A stretch of DNA of 56,007 nucleotides from Alphaproteobacteria bacterium (lineage in GTDB: Bacteria > Pseudomonadota > Alphaproteobacteria > UBA6615): the NCBI GenBank assembly GCA_028822385.1, contig JAPKDV010000002.1, forward strand, positions 1-56,007. Direction: 5' to 3'. How positions within the stretch are numbered: the first letter of the stretch is position 1; each line of letters begins with the position of its first letter. A program made the position numbers and the translations under genes. Below, piece by piece: positions 2 through 14,926 of the stretch. Below the pieces are notes generated by a model. That model did not search any database. It saw only the letters and a list, made by a program, of their open reading frames with translations, and had not been told where the DNA came from.

Positions 2-655
2 CTAGTTTTTCTCACCCGTATTCGGGTGCGCGATATCCGGCTGCACATAAGGTGCCTGCATCTCGAAGATATTATCCGTGTGACAATAGTGCGGACCACC
101 GAGGCGACCGATGGGCTTGAGGAGATCGGGGTTGACGTATTTGTCGTCCAGCATGAGGTCTTCGCGGACATGCCAGCGCAGGACCTTACCGATCACCACA
201 TAGGTCTTCCAGTCGTCGCCGAATTCCATCGTCTGCTGATATTCACATTCCATGGCCACCGGACAGTCCTTGATCCGTGGTGCGTCGACGAGGTCTGAGG
301 GTACGGTCTCGATCCCAATAGACTCGAACTCATTGACGTGCCGCGGCAGGCTGGCGGAACTCTCATTCATCTGGTGTTCCCAGCCCTGGGTCACCGTGTG
401 GATCACGTAGCCCTTCGTGGCTGCAATATTCGCCGACGTGTCTTTGTGGCTTTTCTCTTTTTCGCCGACCGTGATGGAGACCAAAGGCGGGAAGTGGGAG
501 ACGATTGAGAAAAAGCTGAATGGTGCCAGATTGTGGACGCCGTCTTCGTCTATGGAACTGACCCATGCGATGGGGCGCGGTACGATGGAGCCGATCAACA
601 GGCGATAGCATTGTTGGTGATCTATCTCATCGCTGTTGAAGATTCGGTAATCCAT
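2..655 (-). CDS. Flavin reductase family protein (FMN-binding split-barrel)
   Basis: ORF 2..871 contains the flavin-reductase-like core RPIAWVSS...NLAPFSFF. The internal ATG at 655 (MDYRIFNSDE) gives about 217 aa, typical for the family. The upstream 72 codons are not protein-like. Stop codon at 2-4. Confidence 0.8.
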   Translation of the reverse strand: MDYRIFNSDEIDHQQCYRLLIGSIVPRPIAWVSSIDEDGVHNLAPFSFFSIVSHFPPLVSITVGEKEKSHKDTSANIAATKGYVIHTVTQGWEHQMNESSASLPRHVNEFESIGIETVPSDLVDAPRIKDCPVAMECEYQQTMEFGDDWKTYVVIGKVLRWHVREDLMLDDKYVNPDLLKPIGRLGGPHYCHTDNIFEMQAPYVQPDIAHPNTGEKN

Positions 656-774
656 GGGTGCTCCTCGGTCAAAACCTCCGGTAGTGAAGTGTGTCGAAAG
701 ACATCCATGCCTGCAATAGTTGGTGAGGCTCTGGTCTATGCTTTGGATGCGCCGTGGTGTATCTCCGCCCGACC

Positions 775-1368
775 ATGACCGCACCTGTTCCCGCCGAACT
801 CGCCCTTGACCGTCGTACTGCACTGCCGGAAGATTATACCTTCCTGCTGATGGATCACCCGCGTCCGACATGGGAGGGGCACCCCAATAATGGTCAGTGG
901 TGCCAGTTTTGGTTGGCCCGTCACAATATGTTCCGGGAATTTGGTGAAGGTCTGACAGACGCCTGCAAGAAGTTGTTGGCAGGTGAGGTAGAGCCCAAGG
1001 GGTTTCACGAATGGTTTATGACGCGCGTGAGCTTCTTTCTTGGTGAACTCGATACCCACCACAAGATCGAGGAGTATCACTACTTCCCGTTGCTAACCCG
1101 TAGCGATGCCCGTATCGGGAAAGGGGTCGATCTACTGGAAAGCGATCACCACATAATCCACGAACTACTGCGCGGGGCGTACGACACCATCGTTGCGCTG
1201 GATGGCGCAATTCAGGAGAAACCCAATGAAGTAATGGGGCTGGTGCCGCGCATGCACGATGACCTAGCCGCACTTGATGTGGGGTTGCAGCGCCACCTCA
1301 ATGATGAAGAAGACCTCATAGTACCGCTGATCCTTGAACGATCAGAAGCCGATCTGGGGATGGCCTAA
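775..1368 (+). CDS. Hemerythrin-like HHE cation-binding domain protein
   Basis: His/Glu-rich helical motifs HHKIEEYHYFP, ESDHHIIHELL and HLNDEEDLIVP. The ORF opens at GTG 754; the first ATG at 775 is preferred. Divergent from the flavin reductase. Confidence 0.6.
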   Translation: MTAPVPAELALDRRTALPEDYTFLLMDHPRPTWEGHPNNGQWCQFWLARHNMFREFGEGLTDACKKLLAGEVEPKGFHEWFMTRVSFFLGELDTHHKIEEYHYFPLLTRSDARIGKGVDLLESDHHIIHELLRGAYDTIVALDGAIQEKPNEVMGLVPRMHDDLAALDVGLQRHLNDEEDLIVPLILERSEADLGMA

Positions 1369-1680: not shown

Positions 1681-1766
1681 TTGGCATGGTTGGGGCTGAC
1701 CCTTTCTTTTTACACTGTGGCTCGTGCGGGTTGACTCCTAAGTTTCACTCACAAAAAATACAATTC

Positions 1767-2522
1767 ATGAACATGAATGAAGGCGTGAAGACGGCCGTGC
1801 GCACCGTCAATCTGTTTGAGGCGTTTTCCCGTCGGAAAGGCCCGATGACGCTGACCCAGATATCCGAAAGCCTGTCAGCACCGATCAGTAGTTGCCATGG
1901 TCTGGTCCGTACGCTGATTGGCATGGGCTATCTCTATACATCTGAACAAACCCGCGCGATTTACCCGACCAAACGCTTGCTCGACATTGCGCAGACGATT
2001 GCTGCACATGACCCGGTGCTGGAAAGTGTGGTGCCGGTGCTCGAAGATTTACGCGACAGTTCGAACGAGACGGTTATGCTCGGACGTCGGCAGGGAGATG
2101 TAATTTTGTATCTCGATGTTATCGAGGGCACGCAGACCGTGCGGTATTCGGCAGGTGTCGGAGAGATGAAACCGTTGCATTCCAGTGCAATCGGTAAGGC
2201 GTTTCTGGGTCGCCTTGAGGCGGGCGAGCGTGCAGCTCAGGTTGCTCGTTTGGAGCTTGATAGACACACTCCGAATACGATTGTGGAGCGCGCTACACTG
2301 GAAGCTGATCTGGGCGACGGTGCGGCTGTAGGGTATTTTATCACCCGGGGCGAGAATGTCGTTGATGTGATGGGGCTTGCGACCACCGCTGAGATATTTG
2401 GTGATGTTTTTGGAATAGGGATTGCCGCCCCCTTGTCGCGCATGGAATCCGATGTCTCAACTCAGTCGGTACGGCTACTCGCCGCGCGCGACCGACTTGA
2501 AGCTCTTGGGGGAGTTTTGTGA
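1767..2522 (+). CDS. IclR family transcriptional regulator
   Basis: N-terminal wHTH (VRTVNLFEAF...MTLTQISESLSAPISSCHGLVRTL) plus a C-terminal IclR effector domain (HSSAIGKAFL...). Start taken at ATG 1767 (MNMNEG). The stop overlaps the next gene (GTGA at 2519-2522). Confidence 0.85.
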   Translation: MNMNEGVKTAVRTVNLFEAFSRRKGPMTLTQISESLSAPISSCHGLVRTLIGMGYLYTSEQTRAIYPTKRLLDIAQTIAAHDPVLESVVPVLEDLRDSSNETVMLGRRQGDVILYLDVIEGTQTVRYSAGVGEMKPLHSSAIGKAFLGRLEAGERAAQVARLELDRHTPNTIVERATLEADLGDGAAVGYFITRGENVVDVMGLATTAEIFGDVFGIGIAAPLSRMESDVSTQSVRLLAARDRLEALGGVL

Positions 2523-3052
2523 TCGCCATGGCTGAAACCAGCTGGTCAGATGCCCTGTTTGACGTTCTGGTGCGTCAGGATATACGTCAGGTGGCCTATG
2601 TGCCCGACGCGGGACACACTAGGCTGATCGAGCGCTGTACCGCGTATCCGGCGATGGAAACTTCGGTTCTGACCACGGAGGAGGAAGGCATCGCCCTGCT
2701 GGCTGGTGCTTGGCTGGGAGGCGATCGCGGAATATTGCTGATGCAGTCTTCGGGTGTGGGCAATTGCGTGAACATGCTTTCCCTGATCGAGAATTGCCGG
2801 ATGCCGTTTGTGAGTCTGATCACGATGCGTGGCGAATGGGGTGAGTTCAACCCGTGGCAAGCCCCGATGGGGCTTGCGACCCCGGACGTGCTGAACCGGA
2901 TGAATGTGCAGGTACATCGGGTTGATGCGCCGGCAGATGTCGTAGTTACACTCGATGCTGCGATTGCTCAGTCCTATGACGGTATGCTGGCTTCTGCGGT
3001 TTTACTCTCTCAGCGTTTGATTGGAAGTAAGGATTTTGAGGTAGTAGATTGA
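2519..3052 (+). CDS. TPP-dependent decarboxylase, alpha (N-terminal PYR domain) subunit, sulfopyruvate decarboxylase ComD-like
   Basis: About 175 aa with a TPP_enzyme_N-like sequence (VAYVPDAGHTRLIE...TTEEEGIALLAGAWLGG...LLMQSSGVGNCVN). Size and pairing with the next gene match split ComD/ComE enzymes. Start is GTG 2519 or ATG 2528. Confidence 0.7.
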   Translation: MIAMAETSWSDALFDVLVRQDIRQVAYVPDAGHTRLIERCTAYPAMETSVLTTEEEGIALLAGAWLGGDRGILLMQSSGVGNCVNMLSLIENCRMPFVSLITMRGEWGEFNPWQAPMGLATPDVLNRMNVQVHRVDAPADVVVTLDAAIAQSYDGMLASAVLLSQRLIGSKDFEVVD

Positions 3053-3053
3053 T

Positions 3054-3644
3054 ATGACTGACAGTCTTTCACTTCTGGATCGCAGAGAAACTGTTGCCTG
3101 TTTACTACGTGATCGGGGTGACCTGCTTGTCATATCTGGGCTTGGCTCGGCCACCTATGACGTAGCCGCTGCTGGCGATGACCCACGAAACTTTTATCTC
3201 TGGGGTGCGATGGGTGGCACAGTCGCCATGGCCCTCGGTCTGGCACTGGCGCAACCTGAACGCCCGGTTCTCGCGATCACCGGTGATGGCGACATGTTGA
3301 TGGGAATGGGTTCGCTGGCGACAATTGGTGCTAAACGCCCTGCAAACCTCTCGGTCGTGGTTTTAGATAATGAAGTCTATGGTGAAACAGGCGGCCAGCC
3401 GACGGCAATCGCCCATGGCGTTGATCTGGTCACGGTCGCACGTGGATGCGGGCTGAACGCGCTGGACCACATCCGTGACATGAATGGGGTGGGAACACTC
3501 GCCGAACGCATACATCGGGCCGATGGTCCGTTGTTTGCCAACATTAAAATTGATGCGCAGGAATATGTGCGGGTGCTGCCGGCACGTGATGGCGTCTGGT
3601 TGCGTTCGCGCTTTCGTGAGGCCGTATTGGGCCTCGCTCCGTAA
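3054..3644 (+). CDS. TPP-dependent decarboxylase, beta (PP-binding domain) subunit, ComE-like
   Basis: TPP-binding motif GDGDMLMGMGSLATIG...VVVLDNEVYGETGGQ. It starts 2 nt after the alpha subunit stop. Confidence 0.7.
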   Translation: MTDSLSLLDRRETVACLLRDRGDLLVISGLGSATYDVAAAGDDPRNFYLWGAMGGTVAMALGLALAQPERPVLAITGDGDMLMGMGSLATIGAKRPANLSVVVLDNEVYGETGGQPTAIAHGVDLVTVARGCGLNALDHIRDMNGVGTLAERIHRADGPLFANIKIDAQEYVRVLPARDGVWLRSRFREAVLGLAP

Positions 3645-3658
3645 ATTTGGAGGGAAAG

Positions 3659-4543
3659 ATGACTAAGAAGATCGGAATACTGGGATTGGGTTTAGTTGGG
3701 CGCGTTGCGGCCGAGAAATTGATGCCCGAGGGCTACGAATGCATCGCCGTGCGTCGTCTCAGTACAGAAGATTTCCCCGATACGGGTGGCAAGCTTGTGG
3801 AAACGGCGCGAGAACTAGCCGCTACTTCAGATATTGTGATTTCGGTGCTACCCAGTGTGGAAGCGTCACGGATAGCTCTGGAGGGGCCGGAGGGTCTGAT
3901 CGCCGGTGCACATGATGGCCTCACCATCATTGAAATGAACACCTTCCCAGTATTGGAGAAGGAGAGCATCAAGATGCTTGTAGATCCAACCCCAGCATCT
4001 ATCATCGATTGCCCGATCAGCGGCACCCAGCCGATTATTCGGGCGGGTAACGGCGTGATTATGATGAGTGGCGAGGAAGCTCAGTGTGAAGCCGTCCAGC
4101 CGATGCTTGAGGCGATCTGCCCGAAGACGTTCTATGTCGGCGCTTACGGGACGGGGATCAAGCTCAAACTGATGATCAACTTCATGGTTGGTGCCAACAC
4201 GGTCGCACTGGCCGAAGGCATGTTGTTCGGTACGTCTATGGGGCTCGATCCCCAATTGATGATTGATATCGTTGGGCCGAGCGCTGCCGGGTCGACAGTT
4301 TTCAATATGCGCGCGGGAATCATTAAGGACCGGGCTTGGCAGCCCTGTGCCGGGCCAAGCAAGCTGCTCTGGAAGGATCTGGATATTGTCGAGGAGCAAG
4401 CCGATGCTCTGGGCCTGTCCGCCCCGATCCTGCGACTGTGCAATGACTACTACAAGAAGATTGAAAAAGCTGGCCGTCTCGAAGACGAATGTTCTGTGGT
4501 CTATGAAATTCTTGAAGCCGAAACCAAAGCCGCTGTGGAATAA
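3659..4543 (+). CDS. NAD(P)-dependent beta-hydroxyacid dehydrogenase (3-hydroxyisobutyrate / 6-phosphogluconate dehydrogenase-like family)
   Basis: N-terminal Rossmann motif KIGILGLGLVGRVAA and a C-terminal all-helical domain (GTGIKLKLMINFMVGANTVALAEG). ATG 3659 is preceded by GGAGGG. Confidence 0.8.
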   Translation: MTKKIGILGLGLVGRVAAEKLMPEGYECIAVRRLSTEDFPDTGGKLVETARELAATSDIVISVLPSVEASRIALEGPEGLIAGAHDGLTIIEMNTFPVLEKESIKMLVDPTPASIIDCPISGTQPIIRAGNGVIMMSGEEAQCEAVQPMLEAICPKTFYVGAYGTGIKLKLMINFMVGANTVALAEGMLFGTSMGLDPQLMIDIVGPSAAGSTVFNMRAGIIKDRAWQPCAGPSKLLWKDLDIVEEQADALGLSAPILRLCNDYYKKIEKAGRLEDECSVVYEILEAETKAAVE

Positions 4544-4545
4544 GC

Positions 4546-4568
4546 CTGTTTCACGTATGTGAGAACAG
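4546..4568. terminator. Hairpin between convergent genes (possible bidirectional terminator)
   Basis: CTGTTTCAC-gtat-GTGAGAACAG (9 bp, one bulge) sits in the 7-nt gap and over the 3' end of the lactonase gene. There is no clear U-tract. Confidence 0.3.
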
Positions 4569-5468
4569 TACCCGGCCGGAGGTTGGAAGCGTGGCTGTTA
4601 GGATACAGCCGCTTGATGATTCCGTGATGTAGAGCGTGTGGTTGTCCGGTCCGCCAAAGGCACAATTGGTGACCGCCAGGCCTTTGCTTGTGTTGATCCG
4701 GTAGAGTGGCTCACCGATCGGACTGAACACCCAGATTGCGCCCAGTCCCACATGGCAGACCAGTATATTGCCGTTGGCGTCAGTAGCCATTCCGTCGGGG
4801 CCTGTGCCTCCTGAAAGCTGAATAAAGCGTCCCACCTGATCGGCGCGTGCACCCGCATTTAACCGCATGCGCCAGACCGCGTTGTCGCGGGTCAGTCCAA
4901 CGAAGAGAATGTTCTCCTCTGAATTCAAGACCAATCCATTCGGGCTTGGGAGCTGATTACAGATCAGGTCGAGGGTTCCATCTGCGCGGAGGCAGAAGAC
5001 GCGCCCGGAGCGATCAATCAAATCGGACGTTCCCTGATCGGTGAAATACAGATTGCCATTGCTGGCATAGGTCAGATCATTGATGCCGCGGAACCGTTCA
5101 TTGGTGTTGCGCACCAGCATTGGTTCGACCGTGCCATAGACAGGGTCGAGCCGCATTAGTCCGTGGTAGTGGTCGGCGATGACGCCATAGCCGTCCCGAT
5201 GGAACGCCAGACCGTTTGGCTCGCCGTCATATTCACAGGCAATTTCGATGCTGCAGTCCGGCGCAACCCGTAACAACCGGCCCCAGGCCACATCCACTAG
5301 CCAGAGATTTCCGTCGCGATCGAAGGAGGGCCCTTCGAGAAAGCTTGGTGTGTTGGGGCGACCAAACAGCAAGTCAGCCCATTCCGAGGGTCGGTCGTGA
5401 ATACCATGCACGGCGTTCACGTCGACATAAAGTTCGGTTTCGATCACGGGTGGCGCTGCGAACATCAC
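4551..5468 (-). CDS. SMP-30 / gluconolactonase / LRE family lactonase-like protein
   Basis: 305 aa beta-propeller-type sequence (EGPSFDRDGNLWLVDV..., PNGLAF, NDLTYASNGNLYFTD, PNGLVL, GPDGMATDANGN). The start overlaps the meaB stop (ATGA, 5465-5468). Confidence 0.85.
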   Translation of the reverse strand: MMFAAPPVIETELYVDVNAVHGIHDRPSEWADLLFGRPNTPSFLEGPSFDRDGNLWLVDVAWGRLLRVAPDCSIEIACEYDGEPNGLAFHRDGYGVIADHYHGLMRLDPVYGTVEPMLVRNTNERFRGINDLTYASNGNLYFTDQGTSDLIDRSGRVFCLRADGTLDLICNQLPSPNGLVLNSEENILFVGLTRDNAVWRMRLNAGARADQVGRFIQLSGGTGPDGMATDANGNILVCHVGLGAIWVFSPIGEPLYRINTSKGLAVTNCAFGGPDNHTLYITESSSGCILTATLPTSGRVLFSHT

Positions 5469-7907: not shown

Positions 7908-9551
7908 CTACAACCGAACGGGTTCTTCGAATTCGCCCCATTGCGACTTCAATGTAGTAACCATCTCGCCCACAGTGGCATAGGCGTGACAGCAATCAAT
8001 CAGATAGGGCATCAGGTTTTCAGTATCGATTGCCGCAGCTTTCTCTAGTGCGGCGAGCGTTTTGGCGACTTCGGCGTCATCCCGCGTGTCGCGCACGCGC
8101 TCGAATTTCTCAATCACTCGCGAAGATGCCAGCGGGTCGAGCTTGAACAGTTCGGCAACACCCTCGTTCTGATCTTCCCGGCGGAAATAGTTCTGGCCGA
8201 CAATCACGGTCTCGCCGCTATCGACCTTCTTTTTCCGTTCAGACGCACGTTTCGCGATCTTGAGCTGTAGCCAGCCATCTTCAACCGCCTTGGTAACACC
8301 GCCATAGGCGTCAATATCGTCTATTACTTTGGTGATCTCGTCTTCCATCTGATCGGTCAGCCATTCCACATAGTAGCTTCCACCCAGTGGATCGACGGTG
8401 CGTGCGATGCCTGATTCATGGGCTACGATCTGCTGTGTTCGAACCGCGATCTCGGCTGAATGCTCTGTGGGTATCTGATAGGCCTCGTCAAATGCGGCGG
8501 TGAAGATCGACTGTGCGCCGCCCATCACAGCGGCCATGTTCTCAATTCCGACCCGCACCACGTTGTTGTCGGGCTGCGCGCCAACGAGTGATGAACCGCC
8601 ACACACTACGCCGAACCGGAACATCAGTGCTTTGGGGTCCTTCACGCCATAGCGCTGGGTTAGAAGTTTGGCCCAGAGGCGACGGCCTGCTCGGAACTTG
8701 CAGACTTCCTCGAAGAAATCCATGTGGACGTAGAAGAAGAAGCTTAGACGCCGAGCAAATTTCTCCACGTCACCGCCACGCCGGATCAATTCGTCGATAT
8801 AGGCCAACCCGTTGGCGATGGTGTAGCCCATCTCTTCAACAGCTGTACAACCGGCGTCACGCACGTGGGCCCCGGCGATGCTGATGGGGTTGAAGCGCGG
8901 GGTTTGCTCGTTGGAGAACAGGATCGTGTCGGCGATCAGTCGCAATGAGGGGCGCACCGGGAAAATCCATGTTCCGCGCGCCACGTATTCCTTGAGGATG
9001 TCATTTTGAATTGTGCCGGTGAGTTTCTCACGCGGTACACCCTGTTTGTCGGCCACGGCACAATACATGGCGTAGACGATGGAGGCGGTGCCGTTGATAG
9101 TGAATGAGGTTGAGATACCTGCAACATCGATCTCGTCGAACAAAATCTCAGCTTCGGCCAGGTTGGAGAGAGAAACGCCGACCTTGCCAACTTCGGACTT
9201 GGCAATGGGGTCTACTGGATCGTAACCGCACTGGGTTGGCAGATCGAGCGCAACTGACAGGCCGGTCTGGCCCTTGTCGAGGAGGAAACGATAACGCTCG
9301 TTGGATTCTTCAGCCGTACCGAACCCGGAATACTGACGAATGGTCCAGAGCCGACCTCGAAAACCATCCGGAAAAATGCCGCGGGTAAACGGAAATTCTC
9401 CGGGCAGACCTTGATCGGGCTCGCGTACCATATCTGCTGTAACAACTGGCGGCACTTCAATGCCCGATGGTGTCGTCGTGGACGGCTTCGTCGGTGGCTC
9501 TCGATGGGCTTTACTGCCTATCTTGTTAGGGGTCGTTGCGGAATCGCTCAT
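7908..9551 (-). CDS. Acyl-CoA mutase large (substrate/CoA-binding TIM-barrel) subunit, specificity unclear
   Basis: 547 aa, collinear with the MCM alpha catalytic domain as I recall it: FPFTRG...WTIRQYSGFG, GLSVALDLPT, GTIQNDILKEYVARGTWIFP, ISIAGAHVRDAG, RLSFFF. It has no fused B12 domain, which is supplied by the adjacent 132-aa gene. Confidence 0.9.
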   Translation of the reverse strand: MSDSATTPNKIGSKAHREPPTKPSTTTPSGIEVPPVVTADMVREPDQGLPGEFPFTRGIFPDGFRGRLWTIRQYSGFGTAEESNERYRFLLDKGQTGLSVALDLPTQCGYDPVDPIAKSEVGKVGVSLSNLAEAEILFDEIDVAGISTSFTINGTASIVYAMYCAVADKQGVPREKLTGTIQNDILKEYVARGTWIFPVRPSLRLIADTILFSNEQTPRFNPISIAGAHVRDAGCTAVEEMGYTIANGLAYIDELIRRGGDVEKFARRLSFFFYVHMDFFEEVCKFRAGRRLWAKLLTQRYGVKDPKALMFRFGVVCGGSSLVGAQPDNNVVRVGIENMAAVMGGAQSIFTAAFDEAYQIPTEHSAEIAVRTQQIVAHESGIARTVDPLGGSYYVEWLTDQMEDEITKVIDDIDAYGGVTKAVEDGWLQLKIAKRASERKKKVDSGETVIVGQNYFRREDQNEGVAELFKLDPLASSRVIEKFERVRDTRDDAEVAKTLAALEKAAAIDTENLMPYLIDCCHAYATVGEMVTTLKSQWGEFEEPVRL

Positions 9552-11499: not shown

Positions 11500-12615
11500 C
11501 TACTGCGCCGCCGCAGCACTTTCCTCGTCGTTGGGAACGAGGTCAGCGAGGTTTGGCATGACCTCTTTCGCGAACAAATCCATGTTAGAAAGCCAGTCGT
11601 CGAACGGCTCATAGACATACTGGACTTGCAGGACGGTCCCGAAACCACCGGTGTCGTCATAGAGCTTACGCAACTTCTCTGTGACCGTATCAGGGCTGCC
11701 GACAATCCAGATGTTGTCGCAAATGTACTCCGCCGTCAGATCCTCATCCTTAATGTCGTCGTTCTCCTTGTAGAGATCGACGACGCCCAGGGACTTCAGG
11801 ACGTTGTACATATAGTCGTTATAAGCCTGGGCCATGCCGCCACTCAGTGCGTGTTCACGTGCTTCCGCGTCGGTCTTTCCGACATAGATTTCACGCGCCA
11901 CCCGCCAGTCCTTGCGGTGAGGTGTGCGACCGGTTTCCTTGGCACCCTTCAGAACTGCATCCCAATGGGTGTTAAGGTTGCCGGCGGGCAGATAATTAAC
12001 ACTCATCGGAATCCAGCCTTCACGGCCCGCTGTTTCCAACGATTCTGAATATTTGTGCAGACCGGCCACCGCGATGGGTGGGTGGGGGTCCTGGTAGGGT
12101 CGGATATGATGGTAGAGCGGAATATGCGGCATCGGCTCGGGCACTTTGAATTGCCAGAACTTACCGTTGTGCTCGAACGGGTCTTCCTCGGTCCAAAGTC
12201 GTTTGATGGCGTTGATGGATTCGCGCATCCGCTCGCGGTGCTCGCCTTCCTGATAATCGATATCAAAGAACTGGAAATCCGTAGGGGCGCCGCCGGCCCC
12301 AATGCCGAAGTTCAGCCGGCCCTTCGACAGATGATCTAGATAGGCGATCCGCAGGGCGACAAGCCGGGGGTCGTGCATCGGTAGCAAGGTAACACCGGTA
12401 CCAACACGGATCCGCTCCGTTTGGGCAAACACCGTGGCGGCGAATAGATCTGTCGCCGGAATTGGTTCCCAGGGGATGGTGTAGTGCTCACCCATCCAGC
12501 CCTCGGCATAACCTAGTTTGTCGGCGTGGACAAAGGTCTGGACATCTCGGTGATAATTGCCGGTTACGTCGCCACCGGGCGGACGCAGTGGCATGCTGAA
12601 CATTCCGTATTTCAT
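11500..12615 (-). CDS. Luciferase-like (LLM class) flavin-dependent monooxygenase
   Basis: MKYGMFSMP... start, then GYAEGWMGEHY, RVGTGVTLLPMHDP, GRLNFGIGAGG, typical of the bacterial luciferase family (the LimB-like group is only a guess). ATG 12615 is preferred over 12633. Confidence 0.85.
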   Translation of the reverse strand: MKYGMFSMPLRPPGGDVTGNYHRDVQTFVHADKLGYAEGWMGEHYTIPWEPIPATDLFAATVFAQTERIRVGTGVTLLPMHDPRLVALRIAYLDHLSKGRLNFGIGAGGAPTDFQFFDIDYQEGEHRERMRESINAIKRLWTEEDPFEHNGKFWQFKVPEPMPHIPLYHHIRPYQDPHPPIAVAGLHKYSESLETAGREGWIPMSVNYLPAGNLNTHWDAVLKGAKETGRTPHRKDWRVAREIYVGKTDAEAREHALSGGMAQAYNDYMYNVLKSLGVVDLYKENDDIKDEDLTAEYICDNIWIVGSPDTVTEKLRKLYDDTGGFGTVLQVQYVYEPFDDWLSNMDLFAKEVMPNLADLVPNDEESAAAAQ

Positions 12616-12761
12616 TGCATCTGTCTCCCACAAGACTTCGGGCGCGAGCGGCTTCTAGGCCACTTTTTTCGCGTGATGTTATGATTGTAGGGGAAGGTGG
12701 GTCATGGGAGTCAACCGCGTTCAGTAGCGGGAAGAATTTTTCACATACCAGAAATGTTGTC

Positions 12762-12778
12762 GGGGTCCGTAAGACCCC
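12762..12778 (+). promoter_or_regulatory. Perfect 6-bp inverted repeat in the divergent control region / 5' leader
   Basis: GGGGTC-cgtaa-GACCCC lies 33 nt upstream of ATG 12811, within the 195-bp divergent intergenic region. Confidence 0.3.
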
Positions 12779-12810
12779 CTATCGTTGCCGAATATTTGGG
12801 AGAGAAACCG

Positions 12811-13590
12811 ATGTTGATTGGTAAAAAAGGTGAGGCGAAAAGCGCGATCGAAACCGCAGATGCGTCTTCGATAACCGTGCGCGGCAAGGATTTGTGCAAC
12901 GACGTCATGGGGCATGCCTCAATGGCTGAGTTTTTCTATTTTCACCTGACGGGACATGAACCTACAGAGGATCAGGCATTCTTTCTGGACGTTCTGGTGG
13001 TTGCTCTGGCCGAGCATGGCCTGACCCCCAGCGTGCAGGCGGCACGAATGACCCTAGCGGCTGCGCCAGAAGCGTTTCATGGCGCGGTGGCTGCTGGTCT
13101 GCTCGGTGTTGGCTCAGTGATCCTGGGCAGTGCCGATGTGTGTGGCGTGATGTTGGATGACGCTGCCAGTCGCATTGAAGCAGGTGTATCAGCAGAAGAT
13201 GTCGCGCTGGTGATCGCCAGAGAGCATAAGGAATCCGGGAAGTTCATTCCGGGATTTGGGCATCCGATCCATCATCCTGTTGACCCCCGGGCTGTCCGGA
13301 TACTCGCGCTGGCCGATGAACGTAGTGTTGCCGGCCGTCATGTAAATGCGCTTCGGGCTTTCCCCTCAGCCGTTGAAGAGGTCTGGGGCAAGCCTCTGCC
13401 AATGAATCTGCAGGGGCCGATGGCTGCGGTCCTGCTTGATCTTGATTTCCCCAAGACGGCCATCCGAGGCCTTCCTATCCTTGCGCGCACGATCGGTTTG
13501 ATCGGACATCTGAACGAAGAGATTGAACGCCCCATCGGATTTCTCCTCGCCCATCATGGCGAAGAGGCAATCGAATATGACGGGGAATAG
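12811..13590 (+). CDS. Short citrate-synthase-family protein (citryl-CoA-lyase-like)
   Basis: About 259 aa. Contains the citrate synthase catalytic-His motif GFGHPIHHPVDPRA and a second His region GLIGHLNEEIERP, but lacks the large N-terminal part of true citrate synthases. ATG 12811 is preceded by GGGAGAG. Confidence 0.75.
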   Translation: MLIGKKGEAKSAIETADASSITVRGKDLCNDVMGHASMAEFFYFHLTGHEPTEDQAFFLDVLVVALAEHGLTPSVQAARMTLAAAPEAFHGAVAAGLLGVGSVILGSADVCGVMLDDAASRIEAGVSAEDVALVIAREHKESGKFIPGFGHPIHHPVDPRAVRILALADERSVAGRHVNALRAFPSAVEEVWGKPLPMNLQGPMAAVLLDLDFPKTAIRGLPILARTIGLIGHLNEEIERPIGFLLAHHGEEAIEYDGE

Positions 13591-13594
13591 CCCC

Positions 13595-14926
13595 ATGACC
13601 TCTCATGAACTGTTCGACCCTGAGGCCGAAACCCGGGAACCAGCCGATCAGAAACGGAAAGATGAACCGGTCTACCGAAAACAGGTCGAATACCTGTTTG
13701 CGAAGTCTGCTTTTTATCGGGAGAAGCTCGCCGAGGCCGGGTTCAAGACACCGGAATCCGTGGGGGGACTTGATGACCTTCGGCACCTGCCTTTCACGGT
13801 AAAGGACGAGCTGCGCGCCAGTCAGGCCGAACACCTCCCACTGGGCAAACAGCTGGCCGCGCCGCTCGACGATATCGTGAGAATCTACTCGACCAGCGGC
13901 ACGTCAGGCACACCTCTTTATATTCCGGTCACCGATGGTGATCTGAAGCGCTGGATTCACACCTCGAATCGCAGCTATTTTGCTGCCGGGATCCGCCCGC
14001 ATCATCGTGTGGTCACGACATATAATTCGGGTCCGTTTGCGGCGGGTGCCGTGCATGAATCCATGATCGCGCTGGGAGTGCGTATGGTGCCGGTCGGCAG
14101 TGGTAACACCGAGCGCCTTTTGACGGCCCTCTCGCGCTTTCAGGTGCAGGCAATCCCCGGCACGCCGTCCTATTTTCTCTACATCGCAGAAGCTGCACGT
14201 GCGCGCGGGATTGATCCGCGGTCGGTGGGGCTTGAAACCCTCGTCGCCGGTGGCGAGCCCGGGGGTGGTGAGCCCACTGTGCGCGCCCAGATTGAGGCTG
14301 CCTTCAATGCCAAGGTGCACGAGGTTCTCGGGCTGGGCGAACTTTCAATTTCCATGTTCGGTGAAGGTCCTGAGCAGGATGGCATGAACTTCCTTGCGCG
14401 CGATTACATTCACATGGAGCTGATCGATCCGATGACCGAACAGCCGATCCCGTTCGAGGATGGCGTGGAGGGTGAGCCGGTCTACACCCATCTGATGCAG
14501 GAAGGTGCACCGTTGTTGCGGTTTCGCTCGCGCGACCATGTGCAGGTCCGTATGGGACCTGTCGCCAGTGGACGCACCGGTCCACGCATTCGTTGTGTAG
14601 GCCGCACCGATGACATGCTGATAGTCCGCGGCGTGAATGTGTTTCCCAGCGCCATCCGCGAGGTGGTGAACGATTTCCAGCCACATGTCAGCGGTCTGGT
14701 TTCGGTGCGTCCGTCTAAAAAAGGCGTGCAACAACTGCCGCCGCTTAGGGTCTTTGTGGAAGTTGCCGAGGGTCCGGATGCCGAGTCGGGACTGGCGGAC
14801 GCCATCGAAAAGGCTATACGGGCTCGTCTAATCTTTACCGCCCGGATTGAACTGGTGCCGTTCAATTCCCTGCCACGCTCTGACTATAAGAGCCGGTTGG
14901 TCGACTACATTGATGCTACAGACTGA
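13595..14926 (+). CDS. Adenylate-forming acyl-CoA ligase, phenylacetate-CoA ligase (PaaK)/F390-synthetase-like
   Basis: AMP-binding P-loop YSTSGTSGTPLYIPVT, GEPGG, GRTDDMLIVRGVNVFP. Size about 443 aa. Start is ATG 13595 (GGGGA 8 nt upstream) or ATG 13577. Confidence 0.8.
   Translation: MTSHELFDPEAETREPADQKRKDEPVYRKQVEYLFAKSAFYREKLAEAGFKTPESVGGLDDLRHLPFTVKDELRASQAEHLPLGKQLAAPLDDIVRIYSTSGTSGTPLYIPVTDGDLKRWIHTSNRSYFAAGIRPHHRVVTTYNSGPFAAGAVHESMIALGVRMVPVGSGNTERLLTALSRFQVQAIPGTPSYFLYIAEAARARGIDPRSVGLETLVAGGEPGGGEPTVRAQIEAAFNAKVHEVLGLGELSISMFGEGPEQDGMNFLARDYIHMELIDPMTEQPIPFEDGVEGEPVYTHLMQEGAPLLRFRSRDHVQVRMGPVASGRTGPRIRCVGRTDDMLIVRGVNVFPSAIREVVNDFQPHVSGLVSVRPSKKGVQQLPPLRVFVEVAEGPDAESGLADAIEKAIRARLIFTARIELVPFNSLPRSDYKSRLVDYIDATD

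Follow-up and report, generated by a model that had tools for sequence, protein, structure and literature searches.

The described enzymes closest to the one considered here are acyl-CoA mutases dependent on adenosylcobalamin (AdoCbl). Methylmalonyl-CoA mutase (MCM; EC 5.4.99.2), represented by Propionibacterium shermanii MutB (1REQ), human MMUT (2XIJ) and Escherichia coli Sbm/ScpA, is a fused protein, and in E. coli its gene stands in the operon scpA-argK-scpB-scpC, which encodes mutase, G-protein, crotonase and CoA-transferase. Ethylmalonyl-CoA mutase (ECM; Ecm/MeaA) is also fused (~690 aa); it is linked to the crotonyl-CoA carboxylase/reductase gene ccr and serves an assimilatory pathway. 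Hydroxyisobutyryl-CoA mutase (HCM; HcmA, 4R3U) is split into two subunits. Two mutases of aryl- or alkyl-succinyl-CoA have been described, namely IaaGH, the split phenylsuccinyl-CoA/benzylmalonyl-CoA mutase encoded in the iaa cluster of anaerobic indoleacetate degradation in Aromatoleum (PMC8360864), and ActD/MatB (PMC5719088). Here we analyze a stretch of 56,007 nucleotides (hereafter, the window; positions 1 to 56,007 of contig JAPKDV010000002.1, assembly GCA_028822385.1) from an alphaproteobacterium of the lineage UBA6615, in which the gene at 7908-9551 encodes the large subunit of such a mutase. This protein and its nearest relatives probably form a distinct, strongly conserved and uncharacterised clade of split AdoCbl-dependent acyl-CoA mutases, acting on a substrate of the substituted succinyl-/malonyl-CoA type.

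The large-subunit reading frame lies on the minus strand, which the initial annotation had left unstated; the plus-strand translation of the same interval contains many stops. Its 547-aa product and the separately encoded B12-binding protein of 132 aa make the enzyme split, as had been proposed. Membership of the family is established by full-length phmmer matches to PDB entries, namely HCM 4r3u (E 7.5e-143), human MCM 2xij (2e-134), MutB 1req_A (3.3e-108) and also the Mycobacterium tuberculosis MCM. In the 1req_A alignment chain index 68 pairs with query Pro54 and, as chain index i is residue i+1, the offset is +15. This alignment is free of gaps from Pro54 past Arg283, after which a one-residue deletion in MutB brings the offset to +14, and the constant offset of 15 between Tyr89 and Arg283, initially counted by eye, proved to be right. 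Y74, Q182, R192, H229 and R268 of the window enzyme correspond to Tyr89, Gln197, Arg207, His244 and Arg283 of MutB, and the FDEA motif (Glu370), H229 and Q182 align without gaps. Among the changed residues, A228 takes the place of Tyr243 (ISIAGAH versus ISISGYH in MutB), and G314 and V316 take those of His328 and Gln330 (RFGVVCGGSSL versus RTHSQTSGWSL). The residue-level alignment and the codons read in the window (Table 1) bear out the conserved residues named initially (Tyr89, Gln197, Arg207, His244) as well as the three replacements.

The conservation of this pattern was assessed in relatives collected by a scan of one genome per species. The scan gave 238 relatives, and the figures for the clade rest on the best 80, which are 71-96% identical. 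Y74, Q182, R192, A228, H229 and the whole segment RFGVVCGGSSL are invariant in 81 of 81 aligned clade members, and the residue pattern is therefore neither a chance nor a degenerate feature. In an unbiased comparison with 25 MCM-type sequences, 28 positions were fixed differently in the clade, and they form clusters within known segments of the active site (P. shermanii positions 78, 117, 241-247, 328-332 and 364; this numbering is used below wherever reference enzymes are compared). Beyond the three replacements noted initially, the fixed changes include Met78 to Gly, Phe117 to Leu, Ser241 to Ala, Glu247 to Asp, Thr331 to Cys and His364 to Phe, so that over positions 328-332 the MCM-type consensus HCQTS (HSQTS in P. 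shermanii) is replaced by GVVCG. All 25 MCM-type sequences keep Tyr243, His328, Gln330 and His364, where the window enzyme has Ala228, Gly314, Val316 and Phe350. With MCM the window enzyme has in common the fold, the cofactor, the MeaB partner, 41-45% sequence identity and the residues Tyr89, Gln197, Arg207, His244, Arg283, Ser285 and DEA (Glu370); it differs in being split and in the 28 fixed positions. The source genome also encodes, on another contig (C140), a fused MCM of the canonical kind, which shares 61% identity with E. coli ScpA and has a MeaB of its own. Given this canonical MCM and the invariance of the clade residues, the window enzyme is a second, different mutase under strong purifying selection. 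One Vannielia genome carries the clade enzyme, an MCM and a ccr-linked ECM together.

Reference ECM and IaaH sequences were chosen by synteny, through ccr linkage and through the iaa cluster, respectively. The first ECM reference is a 688-aa fused mutase encoded divergently beside crotonyl-CoA carboxylase/reductase (TIGR01751, 617 bits) in Vannielia, and the other two come from ecm-meaB-ccr clusters of Rhodocyclaceae; the IaaH reference locus matches the published iaa cluster gene for gene (thiolase, ligase, hydantoinase A/B, acyl-CoA dehydrogenase, B12 subunit, mutase, three Mo-hydroxylase subunits, family III CoA-transferase and binding protein). That the Tyr89/Arg207 pair marks carboxylated substrates, as had been stated, agrees with these references, for the pair is Tyr/Arg in MCM, ccr-linked ECM and iaa-linked IaaH, Phe/Gln in IcmF and Ile/Gln in HCM. 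Membership of the HCM or isobutyryl-CoA mutase (ICM) class is ruled out by the same pair, although HcmA is the top PDB sequence match and is split and of similar length; HCM lacks the clamp, has specificity residues of the Asp117 type and retains Tyr243, His328 and Gln330. In the pocket wall, MCM, HCM and IcmF all keep GYH, H.Q and QSLHTN. The three ccr-linked ECMs have SYH and RYGVQVNS, that is, His328 is replaced by Gly and Ser329 by Val, with Tyr243 and Gln330 kept. IaaH has GYH, RMIAAGGGG and, at 361-366, QTMALC, with Ile for His328, Ala for Gln330, Gly at 331-332 and Tyr243 kept. Thus, of the three initially noted replacements, the one at His328 is the normal state of ECM, whereas Tyr243 and Gln330 are retained there. 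Replacement of Tyr243 by Ala, Phe117 by Leu and Met78 by Gly is absent from every reference and specific to the clade and its sister P0122; among 147 sequences (50%-identity representatives) GAH occurred only in the sister cluster P0122 and in P0256, P0137 having SAH. The wall at 328-332 and 364-366 is rebuilt in precisely those two reference mutases whose carboxylated substrate bears an additional substituent (methyl in ECM, aminophenyl in IaaH), and this analogy supports a substituted malonyl- or succinyl-CoA as the substrate of the clade. The proposal of a pocket wall rebuilt with smaller or apolar residues is likewise supported; a larger alkyl group, which the initial annotation had put forward, would be one conceivable substituent.

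In a FastTree phylogeny of the references (ECM and IaaH being those chosen by synteny) and representatives, the clade and P0122 (54% identical, with the same signature) were united with support 1.0 and stood outside the MCM, HCM and ICM groups.

The mutase genes belong to an operon of eight co-directional minus-strand genes, ordered luciferase-like monooxygenase (LLM), 2-oxoglutarate (2OG) oxygenase, crotonase, mutase large subunit, mutase small subunit, CoA-transferase, MeaB and lactonase, with gaps of 4-54 nt and three 4-nt overlaps, one of them between the lactonase start and the MeaB stop. Its core recurs as a conserved cassette, (IclR)-crotonase-mutase large-mutase small-family III CoA-transferase-MeaB. 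Virtually all of the 80 loci had the crotonase and both mutase subunits; most also had the CaiB-type transferase and MeaB, and in many an IclR gene stood beside the cassette. In the small subunit the DxHxxG motif reads LDGHDVG (D16-G-H18-D-V-G21), and all 79 homologues keep D16, H18 and G21. Judged by its residues, the cofactor and radical machinery is intact, comprising the His ligand of DxHxxG, His244, Gln197 and Glu370 of DEA. The best NCBIfam models for the CoA-transferase were succinate-glutarate (270 bits) and succinyl-CoA:mesaconate (245 bits), both scores being under the respective cutoffs, and its PDB matches include SUGCT and YfdE. All 80 homologues of the crotonase-fold protein keep E115, the first catalytic Glu, while the site of the second, position 135, is Gln in 75 of them (the window protein included), His in 5 and never acidic; since the second catalytic acid is gone, the protein probably does not act as a standard hydratase. 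Homologous loci carry the annotation PF03308 MeaB. For each of the four roles of the Sbm operon (mutase, MeaB/ArgK GTPase, crotonase-fold decarboxylase and CoA-transferase) the window operon has a candidate gene, but the transferase is of family III and not of the ScpC family, and the crotonase shows no decarboxylase signature other than the missing second Glu. A scan of the window against Rfam revealed no riboswitch or other RNA family.

The cassette is often found beside TRAP-type carboxylate transporters, and plasmid-borne cassettes are compact units. On a plasmid of Marinobacter sp. M3C (L109, 164851-175615) a six-gene cassette, which includes a PduO-type adenosyltransferase, lies between IS5/IS630 and IS21 transposase genes, and this bracketing by insertion sequences (IS) is consistent with recent horizontal movement. 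The cassette is followed by a TAXI-TRAP transporter on a Sulfitobacter dubius plasmid, by a DctP-type TRAP on a Paraburkholderia plasmid and by TTT and LivJ-type binding proteins on a Diaphorobacter plasmid; in Billgrantia, TAXI-TRAP is upstream and a PduO-type adenosyltransferase downstream. A version from Hyphomicrobiales has an acetyl-CoA-hydrolase-family (ScpC family) transferase in place of CaiB, together with a short-chain dehydrogenase/reductase (SDR), an aldehyde dehydrogenase and a ligase. Hosts of the clade comprise metagenome-assembled genomes (MAGs) of marine Alphaproteobacteria, Rhodospirillaceae, Azospirillum, Bradyrhizobium, Halomonas/Billgrantia, Marinobacter, Burkholderiales, Rhodocyclaceae, MAGs labelled Nitrospira and others, spanning Alpha-, Beta- and Gammaproteobacteria and further groups. 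The distribution is wide but sparse (1 of 400 evenly sampled Pseudomonadota; 2 of 121 Rhodocyclaceae), as is typical of a horizontally moving catabolic module. Some neighbours which appeared conserved after clustering of open reading frames (ORFs) were discarded, being housekeeping genes (GlnE, aconitase, RpoH) or spurious antisense ORFs, as the clustering was noisy in high-GC loci.

Two of the host genomes hold further mutase loci of their own. In Bradyrhizobium manausense (NODE_2, 280959-333973; L030, L074) two clade cassettes with identical pocket signatures stand ~31 kb apart and have different partners, namely an ABC transporter, SDR, aldehyde dehydrogenase and ScpC-family transferase in one case and IclR, TRAP and CaiB in the other. 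On the plasmid of Diaphorobacter sp. HDW4B (L112:828-4121) a second, unrelated mutase cassette is located ~10 kb upstream of the clade cassette on the same strand, and comprises TetR, a B12 subunit, a 560-aa large subunit, MeaB, an AMP-ligase and a Liv-type ABC transporter.

Because the Tyr89/Arg207 clamp for a free carboxylate and the cofactor machinery are both kept, the enzyme would be expected to turn a substituted succinyl-CoA into the corresponding substituted malonyl-CoA and back. The pathway can be modelled on the E. coli Sbm operon. A dicarboxylate, presumably a substituted succinate, either taken up or made locally, would be converted to its CoA ester by the family III CoA-transferase; the mutase would then perform a 1,2-shift of the thioester group, turning the substituted succinyl-CoA into a substituted malonyl-CoA, with MeaB guarding the cofactor loading and, in some loci, an adenosyltransferase also serving the cofactor. 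The crotonase-fold protein lacking the second Glu is a candidate decarboxylase of the rearranged acyl-CoA, and removal of the carboxyl group would yield an ordinary, probably branched, acyl-CoA. The reaction would presumably run in this direction. The rebuilt wall (Gly78, Leu117, Ala243, GVVCG at 328-332 and Phe364), which presumably faces the migrating carbons and the adenosyl group, points to one or more hydrophobic substituents on the substrate. We estimate, by analogy with the reference enzymes, a small-to-medium hydrophobic substituent, larger than the methyl of ECM and smaller than the aminophenyl of IaaH, since the wall is apolar (Phe313, Val315, Val316, Cys317 and Phe350 of the window enzyme) but not stripped to Gly and Ala as in IaaH. 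The loss of Tyr243 may provide room for a substituent on the carboxylate-bearing carbon, or for the opposite epimer.

A catabolic isozyme of ECM, which would convert methylsuccinate after uptake to methylsuccinyl-CoA, ethylmalonyl-CoA and, via the crotonase, butyryl-CoA, is an unlikely identity for the enzyme, even though several features speak for it. Both enzymes possess the carboxylate clamp, the exchanges His328 to Gly and Ser329 to Val, which are common to all three ccr-linked ECMs, and Gln in PTQxGYD, and they group loosely in the tree; the small-dicarboxylate transporters (TAXI, DctP, TTT) and the dicarboxylate-type CoA-transferase would suit a C5 acid, and ethylmalonyl-CoA decarboxylases of the crotonase fold are known (ECHDC1; PMC8473548). 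However, the window enzyme departs from the ECM signature (SYH at 242-244, YGVQVNS at 327-333 and a fused B12 domain) in having GAH and FGVVCGG and in being split, only Gly328 and Val329 being common to the two. ECM keeps Tyr243 and Gln330 and has other segments at 331-332 and 362-368, whereas Ala243, Val330, Cys331 and Phe364 are invariant in the clade, and identity to ECM is only ~38%. Vannielia, moreover, has both enzymes, and neither ccr nor ECM was found in the source genome.

Another candidate substrate is an aryl- or long-alkyl-succinyl-CoA, such as phenylsuccinyl/benzylmalonyl-CoA or hexylmalonyl/pentylsuccinyl-CoA, the mutase then being of the IaaGH or ActD/MatB type; such mutases do exist, and we nevertheless judge this assignment improbable. 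IaaGH is likewise split, is 44% identical to the window enzyme and carries the clamp, has small apolar residues in place of both His328 and Gln330, and has the sequence GRGTWIFPV.PS around Arg207 in common with it; family III CoA-transferases are partners in both systems, and a PaaK-like ligase is encoded close by in the window. Yet IaaH retains Tyr243 and Phe117, and its wall consists of Gly and Ala only (IAAGGGGG, Ala364), where the clade has the medium to large apolar residues listed above. The window enzyme departs from the IaaH signature (GYH; MIAAGGGG; QTMALC), and IaaH forms a separate, well-supported branch of its own in the tree. The synteny differs too, for no hydantoinase-like, Mo-hydroxylase or IaaF genes occur at clade loci, and the downstream enzyme of the iaa cluster is the decarboxylating acyl-CoA dehydrogenase IaaF, not a crotonase. 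The transporters beside the cassette are, in addition, of the C4-C6 carboxylate type.

A second, split MCM interconverting succinyl-CoA and methylmalonyl-CoA in an Sbm-like succinate-to-propionyl-CoA operon, its substitutions being neutral drift, would agree with the retained clamp and catalytic residues, the gene content parallel to scpA-argK-scpB-scpC and the database label of methylmalonyl-CoA mutase, but it is most improbable and was rejected, as substitutions invariant in 81 of 81 members from several classes are not drift, the score against the MCM equivalog NF006944 (557.6 bits) is far under the cutoff of 876, a canonical MCM is encoded in the same genome and the MCM-type sequences uniformly keep the residues lost here. 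The Y243A exchange is reportedly severely impairing in P. shermanii MCM, a result attributed to Thoma, Evans and Leadlay in 2000. The clade works like MCM, ECM and IaaGH, yet it bears the signature of none of the three, and we would place it in a specificity class of its own within this enzyme family.

Several points weigh against the reading of the clade as a distinct mutase of substituted succinyl-/malonyl-CoA with a decarboxylating partner. The positions of the pocket (243, 328, 330, 364 and 366) were assigned to substrate atoms according to the roles which we take them to have in MCM structures and by comparison with ECM and IaaH. The deep nodes of the tree, with support of 0.16-0.74, group the clade loosely with ECM and then with an IaaH-type branch, so that kinship with either is not established. 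Between the crotonase and ScpB, the methylmalonyl-CoA decarboxylase of E. coli, identity is only 22%, with no specific kinship, and the candidacy of the crotonase as a decarboxylase is argued from the missing second Glu and from operon logic. The MeaB score falls marginally below its NCBIfam cutoff (Table 1). The oxygenase front end of the window operon is missing from most of the clade-bearing genomes examined and is a poor guide to what the core cassette acts on. Finally, a literature search retrieved no biochemical or genetic account of the clade and no substrate, IaaGH and ActD/MatB being the only mutases of similar type that it returned.

We also consider, as a speculative and rather doubtful extension, that the clade catalyzes a reaction of class EC 5.4.99 that has yet to be described, its substrate being a dicarboxylyl-CoA that is di-substituted or has a quaternary carbon. 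The exchange of Tyr243 for Ala would open space at the carboxylate-bearing carbon. Examples would be the interconversion of 2,2-dimethylsuccinyl-CoA and isopropylmalonyl-CoA, or of a 2,3- or 3-substituted succinyl-CoA and a 2,2-disubstituted malonyl-CoA.

Beyond the core cassette, the window operon and its surroundings contain further genes (Table 1). The top PDB match of the LLM monooxygenase, over its full length, is 3,6-diketocamphane 1,6-monooxygenase (4uwm, E 1.8e-49), a flavin mononucleotide (FMN)-dependent Baeyer-Villiger enzyme of the camphor pathway. Together with the lactonase and the flavin reductase it suggests a plausible Baeyer-Villiger ring-opening set for the cleavage of an alicyclic ketone, and a branched or alicyclic compound could plausibly be converted to the dicarboxylate by the 2OG oxygenase, the Baeyer-Villiger monooxygenase and the lactonase. 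Over 323 aa, the 2OG oxygenase shares 51% identity with one encoded ~5 kb downstream of the mutase gene, in a same-strand array, on the Diaphorobacter plasmid, where aldehyde dehydrogenase and SDR genes follow it. Seven other clade-bearing genomes yielded no orthologue of this oxygenase; it is therefore ruled out as a universal partner of the cassette and represents a lineage-specific front end. An LLM monooxygenase at a sister-clade locus is not orthologous to that of the window (27% identity over 66 aa). Apparently, the front-end enzymes feed the cassette only in some lineages, and many others import the dicarboxylate directly.

The whole 14-kb arrangement is kept in the marine relatives (loci L002-L020), including the operon, the divergent IclR gene, the split thiamine pyrophosphate (TPP) decarboxylase, the dehydrogenase of the 3-hydroxyisobutyrate dehydrogenase (HIBADH) type and the pair of citryl-CoA-lyase-like and PaaK-like genes. 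In the window, the plus-strand region 1686-4543 encodes IclR, then a TPP enzyme made of two subunits and resembling sulfopyruvate/phosphonopyruvate decarboxylases, each subunit scoring below the equivalog cutoff, and then a dehydrogenase of the tartronate-semialdehyde-reductase/HIBADH type; this group of genes adjoins the mutase operon throughout loci L001-L020. At 12697-14926 on the plus strand, divergent from the mutase operon, a short citrate-synthase-like gene overlaps that of a PaaK-like acyl-CoA ligase; the citrate-synthase-like protein matches the citryl-CoA lyase subfamily NF004868 with 298 bits (cutoff 193).

Table 1. Genes of the mutase operon and its neighbourhood, and key codons of the mutase large subunit, in window coordinates.
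Feature	Position	Strand	Evidence or remark
Flavin reductase	2-871	-	
IclR-family regulator	1686-2522	+	Pfam HTH_IclR, IclR_C; heads the adjoining TPP-decarboxylase/dehydrogenase genes
SMP-30/gluconolactonase-type beta-propeller lactonase, 305 aa, last operon gene	4551-5468	-	PF08450 E 2.8e-41; PDB 7ris E 3e-20
MeaB-type G-protein chaperone for mutase, 299 aa	5465-6364	-	TIGR00750 237.7 bits (cutoff 240.75)
Family III (CaiB/BaiF) CoA-transferase, 380 aa	6361-7503	-	NCBIfam and PDB matches; start overlaps small-subunit stop by 4 nt
Mutase small subunit, B12-binding Rossmann domain, 132 aa	7500-7898	-	TIGR00640 134.1 bits (cutoff 57.45)
Acyl-CoA mutase large subunit (substrate-binding, TIM-barrel), P0001	7908-9551	-	TIGR00641 646 bits (cutoff 303.8); PDB alignments
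Codon of F350	8502-8504	-	
Codon of V316	8604-8606	-	GTG
Codon of G314	8610-8612	-	GGC
Codon of H229	8865-8867	-	
Codon of A228	8868-8870	-	GCC
Codon of R192	8976-8978	-	CGC
Codon of Q182	9006-9008	-	
Codon of L102	9246-9248	-	
Codon of Y74	9330-9332	-	TAT
Crotonase-fold protein, 258 aa	9556-10332	-	4 nt upstream of mutase; alignments to PDB hydratases
IPNS-family 2-oxoglutarate/Fe(II) oxygenase, 361 aa	10387-11472	-	Pfam DIOX_N, 2OG-FeII_Oxy
Luciferase-like FMN monooxygenase (LLM), Baeyer-Villiger/diketocamphane type, 377 aa, operon gene 1	11500-12633	-	Pfam Bac_luciferase; PDB 4uwm

The sampled mutases offer further variation at the positions discussed. Among the 147 sequences (P0122-P0271) many keep the clamp (YxQR) but differ at 243 and 328-333, for example GSH/RVYAGSGG, GTH/RIQATPNG and SAH/RFHAGGDI, which suggests numerous unexplored specificities of dicarboxylyl-CoA mutases. 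In B. manausense, ~25 kb from one of the clade cassettes (L099:9021-10766), a third split mutase of 581 aa has Leu, Asn and Gln at the positions of Tyr89, Arg207 and Tyr243; its gene is followed by MeaB and adjoins those of a TetR regulator, an acyl-CoA ligase, a cytochrome P450 and a thiolase-domain protein. By these residues it looks like another uncharacterised specificity type, with a non-carboxylated substrate.

Each new substrate class of acyl-CoA mutases, namely ICM, ECM, HCM, pivalyl-CoA mutase (PCM) and IaaGH, has given a new pathway and a tool for carbon-skeleton engineering, and the survey indicates many more clamp-bearing mutase clades with rebuilt pockets which are unexplored. The clade described here is very strongly conserved across bacterial classes and is mobile, being plasmid-borne and IS-flanked in places; its carriers include MAGs of marine bacterioplankton as well as cultivable Bradyrhizobium, Halomonas/Billgrantia, Marinobacter, Sulfitobacter and Paraburkholderia. 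Compact as the cassette is, and equipped with a regulator and a binding protein of its own, it is a straightforward starting point for finding the substrate. The database label of methylmalonyl-CoA mutase is probably wrong for this clade, and such mislabelling would distort reconstructions of propionate and B12 metabolism in marine and soil bacteria. If the enzyme did act on di-substituted or quaternary-carbon substrates, the mutase and the decarboxylating crotonase would constitute a general bacterial route past gem-dimethyl and branched carbon blocks from terpenoid, alicyclic and branched acids, which would be in keeping with the front ends found here and in other lineages (Baeyer-Villiger monooxygenase, lactonase and 2OG oxygenase).

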